This document shows, piece after piece, positions 23,370 to 25,747 of a stretch of DNA of 64,000 nt. Each line of letters opens with the position of its first letter. Position 1 is the stretch's first letter. Origin of the DNA: a virus; IMG/VR virus record IMGVR_UViG_3300042449_001328, positions 25,690 through 89,689 of that record. One strand, written 5' to 3'. Both the position numbers and the translations under genes were made by a program. The notes under the pieces were generated by a model. That model did no database searches, was not told the DNA's origin, and worked only from the letters and a program-made list of their open reading frames with translations.

Positions 23370-25747
23370 AAAAAACCGTCTTCTGACTTTTTTATTTTAG
23401 TCTTTGCTTGTTCTGCTTTCCTAATCTCTATTTCCCTTTTTGCTGCATTACTTAATGTAGGATCTGAATGTGATTTCATTTTCATCAAAATATCATTTGA
23501 CGTCCTACCAGCGTGTTCAGCTAGTTTTTCAGGTGAATGTTGGAATTTTCCCTTGCTGTTAGCTTTTTGTTGATCGTTATTTTCAGATTTAGAGATTAAA
23601 GTTTTTTTCTTTAACCTACTCTCCCACAAAATTTTACCGTCAGGGGTTAAGACATTATCATTTTTTACAAACTCTAGGCCATGTTGTTTTTCTGCTAATT
23701 CATAAAGCAATGAACCTATTCCTTGACCCCTATGATTTGGATCTACTTGTACAGTTGTAGCTATTAAATTCGGTTTGAATTTGTTTTTTATATAAGTCAT
23801 GTCTCCCACATGATTGTTACCTTTTTTAGCAATAATTTTATATTCATTGTCATCCAAATGCTTTATATGAAATGAAGCATTTTCTCCATTTTTAAGTTTT
23901 TTTTCATAAATAGGGTAACCTAAGTTTGTGTGACCTACAACAATTCCACCCCTATCCCCCTCAGCTTTTTCGAGATCGTTACTCTCACCCTTCTCAATTC
24001 CAAAATACTCTTTTAAGTGTTCTTTAGTGTCTTTAAATAAATCCGCTGCCATCCACTCGTTTACTGACATAAACTTTAATTGAGTAGCTTCGTTTTCTAA
24101 ATCAATGTTAGCTAGAGGTGAAGTGCCTAAGTCTTGATAGAAATTTATGCAGTAACCGTTTAATGTTTGACCTGTTGGCAATTGCTTAGTGTAGCATGGA
24201 ACTAGATAAGAGGATTTGTCAATGTCTAGATTTGTTTCTTCTTTGAATTCCCTGAATGCTGCTTCGTCTGGTCTTTCATCTCCGTCCACATGACCTCCAG
24301 GCAGCATCCATTGTCCGTTATCTTCTCTTTTCATTAAAAGCAACTTTCCTTCGTGGTCTGTGTAGATAATTGCTACATAGTCTCCTTCGGCTTTTTTTAG
24401 CTCGTTGCTTAATTCTTTCTTTTGCTTTTTAGCCTCTTTCTTTTGCTTTTCATCGTCATCCTCTTCTAGTATTTTTACTAGGTTCTTATGCTCTTCGATG
24501 AATTCATCTTTTGGGATTTCAACTTTTTCAGACTTTTTTATTTCACCTGAGATATGTTTTTTTACCGTATCTACTATTTGTTGTATAGAATCTCCTTCTT
24601 TAACATCTATATTTATAAACTCAACATTTGGGTGTTCTTTTTTTATTTCTTCAAACGAAGTCTTATTTCTCCTATAATCTGAATTATTAAAATCGCCTAC
24701 AGTAACATTGATTATCTTTTTCAACCCATCATCTTCAATGTCTGAATTAAAGTTGCTCCAATCAGGTGTATGGTCTTTCACCCTTATTCCTATATCTCCA
24801 AACCTAGCATAGCCTTGATTCCCTAACGGGAAACCTAATGAGGCTTGTATGTCAAATTCAGCTTTAACTTGATTTTTTTCATCTAAATCGTAATCTTTGA
24901 ATTTATGACCCGATAAAGCTGATTTAAAAGTAGTATGCCCTCTTACTCCACTTCCAATCCCTCCCTTACTCAACTCTATCTCCACAGCTAGTTGATATAC
25001 TCTTTCGGCTGATTCTAGGTCTAGGTTGTGAGATTTTTGGAGGTCGATTAGGATGTCGGCTTTAGAAACTTCCTCTTTTTCAACTTGAGTTTTATGGTAA
25101 TTTTCACTCATTCTATGAGCAGATTCATTAATGCTTGAATCTTTTATTTTACCATCACTGCGAGTACCATGTTTTTTATAAGAATCTGTTAATATTTTAT
25201 TATGAGCATTTTGAGCATCTATATGGTCTTGTTTTGAAAAACTCGCATAATGATCCAAAACTTTTGATTTTGTTCCAGGTTTTAAATGAGATTCATAAAT
25301 CGGTTTATTTGATTGCGTAGTCCCTATAACTTTTCCGCCTTTAGAACCAACGCCGCCTTTCTCAATTAGCTCCTCTAACTCCTTCTCAGCTTTTTCTATC
25401 CCTTCGTGAAACTTAGCTACCTTATTGATAAACTTATCTTCGTTCTTAGATCTCTTTTCTTGAAGGATTTGTTTTGTGGCTTGGATTTCTTCGTTGCCTT
25501 CTGATTTAACTAGGGCTTGATCGCAGGCTTGAATTTTAGATTCAAATTCCTGATCTATTTCATCGAAGTTTTCGATTGCTTTTTGCAAGTCCTCTTTGCC
25601 TAACTCAATTACCTCCTCCAATGCCTCTGCTTTGCGTAGTTCTATTTGATCGGCAGTAAGATTGTTGCCTTGTTCATCTTGGATAACAACTCCGGGGATT
25701 TCTTTGATAGTGCCAAAAGCATTACGGATAGTTGAAAATAAATTCAT
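23351..25747 (-). CDS. Modular putative internal head polyprotein with NUDIX and GNAT domains
   Basis: Nudix box GGHVDGDERPDEAAFREFKEETNL; GNAT motif A VDPNHRGQGIGSLLY; two IGHT-like modules; many xK/[AGS] linkers; late promoter 25780-25792. Confidence 0.8.
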   Translation of the reverse strand: MNLFSTIRNAFGTIKEIPGVVIQDEQGNNLTADQIELRKAEALEEVIELGKEDLQKAIENFDEIDQEFESKIQACDQALVKSEGNEEIQATKQILQEKRSKNEDKFINKVAKFHEGIEKAEKELEELIEKGGVGSKGGKVIGTTQSNKPIYESHLKPGTKSKVLDHYASFSKQDHIDAQNAHNKILTDSYKKHGTRSDGKIKDSSINESAHRMSENYHKTQVEKEEVSKADILIDLQKSHNLDLESAERVYQLAVEIELSKGGIGSGVRGHTTFKSALSGHKFKDYDLDEKNQVKAEFDIQASLGFPLGNQGYARFGDIGIRVKDHTPDWSNFNSDIEDDGLKKIINVTVGDFNNSDYRRNKTSFEEIKKEHPNVEFINIDVKEGDSIQQIVDTVKKHISGEIKKSEKVEIPKDEFIEEHKNLVKILEEDDDEKQKKEAKKQKKELSNELKKAEGDYVAIIYTDHEGKLLLMKREDNGQWMLPGGHVDGDERPDEAAFREFKEETNLDIDKSSYLVPCYTKQLPTGQTLNGYCINFYQDLGTSPLANIDLENEATQLKFMSVNEWMAADLFKDTKEHLKEYFGIEKGESNDLEKAEGDRGGIVVGHTNLGYPIYEKKLKNGENASFHIKHLDDNEYKIIAKKGNNHVGDMTYIKNKFKPNLIATTVQVDPNHRGQGIGSLLYELAEKQHGLEFVKNDNVLTPDGKILWESRLKKKTLISKSENNDQQKANSKGKFQHSPEKLAEHAGRTSNDILMKMKSHSDPTLSNAAKREIEIRKAEQAKTKIKKSEDGFFLNSLF

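Follow-up and report, generated by a model that had tools for sequence, protein, structure and literature searches.

The window analysed here is a 64,000-nucleotide stretch of the genome of an uncultured tailed phage, represented by one contig of 89,689 bases. It contains a head-assembly region in which all of the genes lie on the minus strand. In the direction of transcription these are the large terminase, the portal, a block of sugar and methyl transferases, a cargo polyprotein located between the portal and protease genes, two proteins of 712 and 497 residues, the head maturation protease, the scaffolding protein, the major head protein, and then tail genes including the tail sheath (Table 1). 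The subject of this analysis is a helical hairpin that occurs twice in the region, once at the C-terminal end of the protease and once inside the polyprotein. Comparison of the sequences indicates that the two copies are related, and that the hairpin is portable, having been duplicated into cargo proteins. Because related phages join the protease to the head scaffold through this hairpin, its probable role is that of a tag for loading proteins into the capsid.

Table 1. Positions of the genes and features discussed in the text, numbered from the first nucleotide of the window (aa, amino acids).
Feature	Position	Strand	Evidence
Large terminase gene	48728-50260	minus	
Portal gene	40779-42437	minus	
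Cargo polyprotein gene, 798 aa	23351..25747	minus	Pfam NUDIX and GNAT, six Lys-Ala-Glu
Head maturation protease gene, 288 aa	18611..19477	minus	phrog_1028, E 4.2e-32; 56 homologues
Scaffolding protein gene, 242 aa	17820..18548	minus	Lies between protease and major head protein; both ends homologous to the fused scaffold part of relatives
Major head protein gene, 501 aa	16276..17781	minus	phrog_752, E 9.7e-66
Polyprotein copy of the hairpin, aa 225-262	24962..25075	minus	Profile from foreign protease C-termini; exhaustive profile search
Protease copy of the hairpin, aa 253-288 (end of the protein)	18614..18721	minus	Profile E 3.4e-15; AlphaFold2 helices
Scaffold N-terminal helix, aa 4-20, counterpart of helix 3 and proposed docking site	18489..18539	minus	Aligned to positions 41-57 of the fused-unit profile; conserved in scaffold alignment
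Start of the His-rich module ahead of the polyprotein hairpin	25292..25366	minus	Same motif in relatives
Lys-Ala-Glu in the protease linker, aa 215-217, candidate self-release site between catalytic domain and hairpin	18827..18835	minus	
Lys-Ala-Glu in the polyprotein, aa 119-121, nearest candidate cut upstream of the hairpin	25385..25393	minus	Inferred
Lys-Ala-Glu in the polyprotein, aa 295-297, nearest candidate cut downstream of the hairpin	24857..24865	minus	Inferred
Lys-Ala-Glu-Gly junction just before NUDIX, aa 452-454	24386..24394	minus	Also before NUDIX in P0061
Lys-Ala-Glu-Gly junction just before the GNAT part, aa 594-596	23960..23968	minus	
N-terminal region of the major head protein, aa 19-59, with Lys-Ala-Glu at its end	17605..17727	minus	Copied in the protease linkers of relatives

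The initial annotation aligned 30 residues of the polyprotein (aa 228-257, nucleotides 24977-25066, minus strand) with 30 residues of the protease (aa 253-282, nucleotides 18632-18721, minus strand). Both segments are present on that strand, and align without gaps with 9 of 30 residues identical and a BLOSUM62 score of 49. Tested against shuffled controls, the pair is not significant. Local comparison of the two proteins gives at best a score of 51, which was equalled or beaten by 237 of 1000 shuffles of the protease and by 176 of 1000 shuffles of the polyprotein. BLASTP places the pair only within a gapped alignment, with 13.1 bits and an E of 25.

Profiles were given the greater weight, since it is they that decide the question. 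A forward profile was constructed from the C-terminal segment of 10 protease homologues in other genomes, leaving out the window protein, its 87% identical twin and one duplicate C-terminus, and was searched against the 901 open reading frames (ORFs) of 30 aa or more in the six frames of the window. It matched the protease with an E of 3.4e-15 and the polyprotein, at aa 227-258, with an E of 3.4e-8 (29.0 bits), the next best match being at 0.72. A reverse profile, constructed from five copies found in cargo contexts in other genomes, gave 8.6e-20 for the polyprotein and 3e-6 for the protease C-terminus, with the next match at 0.34. In the whole 89.7-kb genome, only these two copies are found at E <= 0.01. 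On this sequence evidence, the hairpins of the protease and polyprotein are homologous at the level of the family. The kinship originally proposed thus stands for the family and not for the two sequences as a pair, and the pairwise result is a caveat rather than a verdict.

The structure of the protease was predicted using AlphaFold2 with an alignment of 22 of the 56 protease homologues, in the closer of which the C-terminal segment is conserved. The prediction consists of a confident domain at approximately aa 20-165, which is the catalytic domain, a disordered linker, and two helices. Within the linker (aa 166-250), the predicted local distance difference test (pLDDT) score is below 50 at residues 166-188, 217-231 and 236-249. 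The helices, at residues 254-265 and 269-287, form a block with a pLDDT of 75-87, in agreement with the helix pair suggested initially. The module is a conserved helix-turn-helix hairpin of approximately 35 residues. The polyprotein copy is also predicted to be two-helical, on the basis of its gap-free alignment to the protease copy. In most of the close protease homologues the hairpin is preceded by a run of 4-8 lysines, and upstream of this by a linker resembling the capsid protein; the polyprotein copy has neither. The window protease has no match in Pfam.

A scan of viral contigs using a single protein found no relative. An alignment-based scan of the viral contigs found 80 loci, which together with the genome of the window make up 81 sources. 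(Relatives are referred to below by P numbers for proteins and L numbers for loci.) Using a profile of 12 copies, the hairpin is found in 52 of the 81 sources. In 45 of the 53 ORFs that bear it, the hairpin is followed in the same ORF by a conserved third helix, at a spacing of 2-28 residues (median 4). Hairpin and third helix are both present in 47 sources, the hairpin only in 5, the third helix only in 1, and neither in 28; this co-occurrence arises in part because they are neighbouring pieces of one conserved region. The ORFs, which are 450-630 aa long, then continue through an acidic stretch into a conserved C-terminus that matches the window scaffold, and the capsid gene comes next. Most of the relatives are therefore protease-hairpin-scaffold fusions. 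When 30 of the fused-unit sequences were analysed using Pfam, no family matched more than two of them, and all of these matches were below the cut-offs.

The arrangement is different in the window and in L001. Here the protease stops directly after helix 2, and the counterpart of the third helix is at the start of a separate scaffold protein. The window has the genes for protease and scaffold in different frames with a stop between them, and the break falls exactly in the loop that joins helices 2 and 3. The hairpin is therefore the last part of the protease, and helix 3 the first part of the scaffold. A third helix within a few residues is absent after the window protease, where it is on the separate scaffold gene, and also after the polyprotein copy and after the tandem cargo copies described below. 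The C-terminus of the scaffold was also considered as the source of the hairpin and was ruled out, a comparison by hhalign of the hairpin profile with 57 scaffold C-termini from relatives giving a probability of 1.1%.

AlphaFold2 was also run on the natural fused stretch of L022 (72 aa, using a 30-locus alignment), and its model packs the hairpin and the first helix of the scaffold as a unit. Helices are predicted at residues 5-15, 21-37 and 45-55, with a pLDDT of 84-89 over residues 1-50 and a predicted template modelling (pTM) score of 0.59 despite a disordered tail. Covariation was analysed in 93 unique fused sequences (effective number of sequences, Neff, 86; 67 columns) by mutual information with average-product correction (MI-APC). 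The strongest pair, with a z of 9.9 compared to 3.8 for the next, consists of a column at the end of helix 1 and one in the middle of helix 3. Asp is found with Tyr in 40 of 41 Asp rows, and the 15 Tyr rows have Phe (9), Leu (5) or Ile (1). The model and the covarying pair suggest a contact of the hairpin with the first helix of the scaffold. Prediction of a complex of scaffold residues 1-60 with the polyprotein hairpin gave a score of 0.15 against a mark of 0.32, which counts neither for nor against binding.

The polyprotein is predicted to contain, in order from the N-terminus, a coiled-coil-like part, a His-rich module, the hairpin, an unknown domain, a NUDIX domain (aa 458-576, Pfam E 1.7e-14) and a GNAT domain (aa 628-688, E 3.9e-5, above the Acetyltransf_1 cut-off). 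A search of the protein atlas with aa 128-300 produced no usable match. The N-terminal part contains, at aa 42-61 (25565-25624, minus strand), a weak and non-significant likeness to the third-helix motif (conditional E 0.073), within the stretch conserved in the relative P0061 (discussed below).

The His-rich modules are 60-130 aa long, open with the conserved glycine-rich motif Gly-Gly-x-Val/Ile-Ile/Val-Gly-His/Thr-Thr ... Pro-Ile-Tyr, and form tandem arrays behind proteases, including in L002. They have no match in Pfam, and may be small internal head proteins. In the polyprotein, a second opening motif is found at 23900-23953 (minus strand), directly after the Lys-Ala-Glu-Gly junction that precedes GNAT. 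A different sequence, Gly-Ile-Gly-Ser-Gly-Val-Arg-Gly-His-Thr-Thr, follows a Lys-Gly-Gly junction at aa 263-272 (approximately 24935-24960, minus strand). It occurs three times in P0062, a protein with a weak match to Mu F-like head proteins (E 5e-4, under the cut-off), and may mark another junction, or the N-terminus, in packaged proteins.

The same combination of modules is seen in the relatives. The His-rich motif is found after a hairpin or a protease domain in P0005, P0007, P0012, P0015, P0059, P0060, P0069, P0073, P0077, P0085 and P0088. P0059 (886 aa, three hairpins) and P0060 (842 aa, two hairpins) consist of a protease followed by tandem units of His-rich module plus hairpin, and every hairpin leads directly into a Glu-Lys-Ala-Glu-Gly junction and then into the next unit. 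L002 and L003 (1100 aa) have two hairpins each and an AAA ATPase part at the end. In P0069, P0073, P0077 and P0085, one hairpin is flanked on both sides by cargo modules, P0085 being a protease-cargo-hairpin-scaffold fusion. The presence of two or three copies in protease-cargo fusions bears out the suggestion in the initial annotation that the segment is portable. A P-loop ATPase cargo domain is found both fused to the protease in L002 and L003 (9986-13285) and as the C-terminal 300 aa of the free-standing polyprotein P0061; cargo moves between genes that are fused to the protease and genes that are not.

When 1.84 billion representatives were searched exhaustively with the profile, 73 proteins were found at E <= 0.001, of which 64 have a protease domain. 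The nine carriers without one are the window polyprotein, its ortholog P0061, three short proteins and four repeat proteins. The last four (P0066, P0082, P0109 and P0116) have internal repeats or are tetratricopeptide repeat (TPR)-like, and were counted as false positives. The short ones (P0080, P0088 and P0118) look like gene fragments, and were not used as free-standing carriers.

P0061 is encoded on the same 18,958-base contig as the protease P0004, which is 87% identical to the window protease, and provides a useful comparison. The two polyproteins are identical at 29 of 39 positions in the hairpin, 76 of 131 in the N-terminal part and 88 of 148 in the NUDIX part. The His-rich stretch ahead of the hairpin has only 26 of 92 identical, and of the 187 residues past the hairpin 3 are identical and 181 are absent from P0061. 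To judge from these sequences, the hairpin in the polyprotein is an island of conservation under selection.

A possible cleavage motif is also shared by these proteins. Lys-Ala-Glu occurs 22 times in 99 ORFs (25,839 aa), compared to 6.9 expected. Of these, 15 are in four head proteins, namely the capsid protein (2), scaffold (5), protease (2) and polyprotein (6), for each of which fewer than one is expected (0.40 for the scaffold and 0.57 for the polyprotein). Lys-Ala-Glu is likely to be the motif at which the protease cuts. Searching with the first 70 residues of the capsid protein using phmmer matched the linkers of more than 20 protease homologues, with E from 5.9e-9 to 1e-3. This capsid-like copy is just upstream of the lysine run and hairpin (in P0006, P0008, P0014, P0069, P0085, L001, L002 and others), and the linker of the window protease has diverged from it. 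Its position fits a substrate-like self-release site between the catalytic domain and the hairpin, at which cleavage would separate the two. It was suggested in the initial annotation that both copies of the segment start at a predicted cleavage site. This is not supported, because neither copy starts at Lys-Ala-Glu: the motif is 35 residues upstream of the protease copy and more than 100 upstream of the polyprotein copy, and the sequences directly before the two copies have no motif in common.

On the basis of these observations, we hypothesise that the hairpin functions as a handle, which would fasten the protein that bears it to the core of scaffold in the procapsid as this assembles. The likeliest way is for it to pack in trans on the N-terminal helix of the scaffold, and so re-form the unit that is made in cis in the fused relatives. 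The polyprotein carries its own copy of the handle, and so is proposed to be co-assembled through it. Cleavage after Lys-Ala-Glu would follow, with the protease acting on its own linker as well as on scaffold, capsid protein and polyprotein, and would free NUDIX, GNAT and other pieces inside the head. What the analysis shows is the homology, helix pair, position, portability and conservation of the hairpin, and the enrichment of Lys-Ala-Glu in head proteins; the binding, its partner, the cleavage, packaging and delivery are steps of the hypothesis. With moderate confidence, we regard the hairpin as a docking tag that can be moved from protein to protein, and that brings protease and cargo to the core of the scaffold ahead of cleavage at Lys-Ala-Glu. 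A more specific proposal is possible and is made tentatively, as one that may well turn out to be wrong: that the hairpin and the first helix of the scaffold are a split three-helix domain, constituting a natural 'dock, then cut' loading system, with its address copied onto His-rich proteins, NUDIX, GNAT and AAA ATPase cargo, and the protease itself. Any protein with the two-helix half would attach to the free helix that begins each scaffold subunit, enter the procapsid during assembly, and then be released by the Lys-Ala-Glu protease. In that case tailed-phage capsids would have an address for cargo that is genetically encoded and differs from the T4 leader.

Several observations weigh against the docking tag. 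Taken as a pair, the two window copies have a similarity within that expected by chance. The only full-length carriers that lack a protease are the window polyprotein and P0061, and the conserved N-terminal 131 residues that these share could be the real targeting part of the polyprotein. In the fused relatives, the hairpin persists although the protease is already covalently tied to the scaffold, and so it may serve some other or further function. The tandem copies, one for each cargo unit, exceed what is needed to target one polypeptide. A wide structure search with the three-helix unit found only generic small helical bundles (best Z 6.6). Finally, when the covarying pair is mapped onto a tree of the protease domain, there are five independent contrasts on supported branches, approximately four in the same direction and none opposite. 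With the phylogeny controlled in this way, a sign test gives a p of 0.125; five contrasts lack the power to reach significance, and the covariation therefore stays suggestive. The idea in the initial annotation that the segment docks both protease and cargo to the core is a reasonable one given the position at the joint, the fold model and the covarying pair, which for lack of power does not pass the phylogeny-aware test.

The alternative that survives best, which we consider unlikely, keeps the hairpin as a procapsid-docking tag and changes its partner, from the first helix of the scaffold to the major capsid protein (its inner face or its N-arm) or to the portal. By analogy, the hairpin might then resemble the helix-loop-helix at the C-terminus of the P22 scaffold, or the tail that ends the protease of HK97. 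This would leave the hairpin a role where protease and scaffold are one chain, and coat-binding helix-loop-helix elements are known in the P22 and phi29 scaffolds (PMC3185693). However, the hairpin profile is unlike the C-terminal region of the scaffold, presumably the part that binds coat, as noted above from the hhalign comparison; and the tight spacing, the three-helix model and the covarying pair all favour helix 3 as the partner.

The directness with which each internal copy in the tandem arrays runs into a junction and the next cargo module (P0059, P0060, P0069, P0073, P0088 and L002) raises a different function, that of a processing cassette. Here the hairpin would not be for targeting, and would instead be an exosite that presents the next junction, Glu-Lys-Ala-Glu-Gly or Glu-Lys-Gly-Gly, to the protease, so that the cargo units come apart efficiently; in the window polyprotein, too, the hairpin is followed by a Leu-Ser-Lys-Gly-Gly junction. 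We consider this quite improbable, as the protease's own copy is followed by a stop (in the window, L001, P0004, P0072, P0096 and P0108) or by the scaffold helix, without a junction motif. The second copy of L002 also leads into the ATPase part without a motif, and no hairpin lies upstream of the two Lys-Ala-Glu-Gly junctions that precede NUDIX and GNAT.

The comparison with P0061 bears on the suggestion that the polyprotein copy is a functionless passenger, which recombination would have taken, together with its His-rich module, out of a protease-fused cargo array and into a gene of its own. The His-rich module and hairpin of the polyprotein do match the repeat unit of such arrays, and carriers without a protease are rare, with two full-length among the 73 matches. 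The hairpin is nevertheless the best conserved stretch, next to a His-rich module that has been replaced and 187 residues that have been lost. This pattern of conservation is the opposite of that expected for a functionless passenger, and we therefore disfavour the passenger, as an improbable explanation.

It has a still lower probability that the hairpin, with the lysine run that precedes it in most close protease homologues, binds DNA or otherwise keeps fragments in the filled head once the scaffold has gone. After cutting, each tandem cargo unit would indeed hold a C-terminal copy; but the polyprotein copy has no lysine run, no DNA-binding family was matched in the Pfam analysis of 30 members described above, and the structural matches were generic. 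Least probable by far is a chance resemblance between helical stretches rich in lysine and glutamate, which the 18-24% of shuffles reaching the pair score and the BLASTP result would allow, and which is refuted by the profiles in both directions and by the repetition of the hairpin in relatives.

Some neighbouring genes may be described briefly. The block inserted between the portal and the head-assembly genes (26961-32167, minus strand) encodes FkbM-type and other methyltransferases, a family-25 glycosyltransferase, a Stealth-like protein and a nucleotide-sugar epimerase. The 712-aa protein (21042-23180, minus strand), which sits between the polyprotein and the protease, has a strong match to the C-terminal part of phrog_22901 and weak matches, under the cut-offs, to zincin-like metallopeptidases (DUF6782, Peptidase_M78). 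It contains no hairpin, none of the scanned junction motifs (Lys-Ala/Gly-Glu/Gly-Gly, Lys-Gly-Gly, Ala-Glu-Gly) and at most one Lys-Ala-Glu. A homing-endonuclease-like gene (6224-7129, minus strand; phrog_314, E 3.1e-45) adjoins the tail sheath gene. Neither nucleotide nor protein searches matched the genome to any named phage record.

It is useful to compare the hairpin with systems that are already known. The wider question is how tailed phages other than T4 choose the proteins that are packed into the head and injected. The window offers a small, defined domain that is common to protease and cargo, whose position at the joint suggests a partner, and which can be tested directly. If the docking tag is correct, it would explain how NUDIX, acetyltransferase and ATPase effectors of the 'polyvalent' type enter the capsid, and would show cargo moving between protease-fused and free-standing forms. 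It would also provide a compact natural tag with which proteins could be loaded into phage capsids, and would add a family that is missing from Pfam and would improve the annotation of head modules in metagenomic phages.

The closest parallel in function is the capsid targeting sequence (CTS) of T4, an N-terminal leader of approximately 10 residues that is clipped off. As described in PMC3012670, it is carried by the internal proteins IPI-III and Alt, and is removed by the prohead protease gp21. In both phages, a short conserved element would be placed on unrelated proteins and give entry to the scaffolding core before the head protease acts, and the cargo would include enzymes delivered together with the DNA. 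The hairpin differs in being approximately 35 residues long and folded, internal (aa 225-262 of 798) or C-terminal, and not obviously removed: in the window no Lys-Ala-Glu directly bounds either copy, unlike a T4-type leader. It is homologous to the protease's own C-terminus and has no sequence relation to the CTS, and the window protease is of the phrog_1028 type with the likely motif Lys-Ala-Glu.

For HK97, Duda, Oh and Hendrix reportedly found in 2013 (J Mol Biol 425:2765) that the C-terminal part of the maturation protease gp4 is an encapsidation signal and can carry a foreign protein in. There a C-terminal part of the protease, apart from the catalytic domain, is reported to bring the protease into the procapsid. 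The delta domain of the capsid protein serves as the scaffold in HK97, whereas the window has a separate scaffold, and its tail is a defined hairpin domain with natural copies in cargo; we know of no natural HK97 cargo with a copy of the protease tail.

Protease and scaffold genes are fused or nested in lambda (C/Nu3), Mu (I/Z), P2 (gpO) and herpesvirus (UL26/UL26.5). Most relatives of the window protease are likewise protease-scaffold fusions, and the shared scaffold part would be the way for the protease into the procapsid. In the window, by contrast, the fusion is broken, and the protease keeps only the two-helix piece, which is also copied into cargo. We are not aware of any fused or nested system for which a piece of the joint has been described as copied into cargo.

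Engineered P22 capsids are said to have been loaded with cargo fused to scaffold. As described in PMC3185693, the scaffolding proteins of P22 and phi29 have coat-binding domains of helix-loop-helix form; their solved elements were not among the 50 matches listed by the wide structure search. The likeness is in the use of a small two-helix element for attachment in the procapsid, and in the loading of cargo that is fused to a scaffold-derived element. The window hairpin, however, is on the N-terminal side of the scaffold and is unlike the C-terminus of its own scaffold, and its proposed partner is the scaffold.

With respect to cargo, the best comparison is with the polyvalent proteins of phages and conjugative elements (Iyer et al. 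2017, PMC5512222). In that work, these are multidomain effectors predicted to be packaged and injected, and processed by assemblin-like peptidases; the peptidase is always C-terminal, and no targeting element is named in the passages on them. The combination of NUDIX and GNAT in one 798-aa protein (with AAA ATPase in relatives), encoded among head genes, is similar. The protease, however, has a gene to itself in the window and occupies the N-terminal end of the fused relatives, and the shared hairpin is a candidate address.

The cargo-loading peptides of encapsulins are short, extended C-terminal tags on cargo enzymes that bind the shell protein, with no protease and no scaffold. They resemble the proposed hairpin tag in directing cargo enzymes into an HK97-fold shell, and differ from it in being extended and bound to the shell, as opposed to a hairpin that goes with a protease and a scaffold.

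A search of the literature, which was not exhaustive and had subscription journals outside its reach, found no description of a C-terminal protease domain copied into cargo. The principle of an address tag combined with a head protease is already known from T4 and HK97, and by analogy with these the hairpin common to protease and cargo is best regarded as a variant of it.

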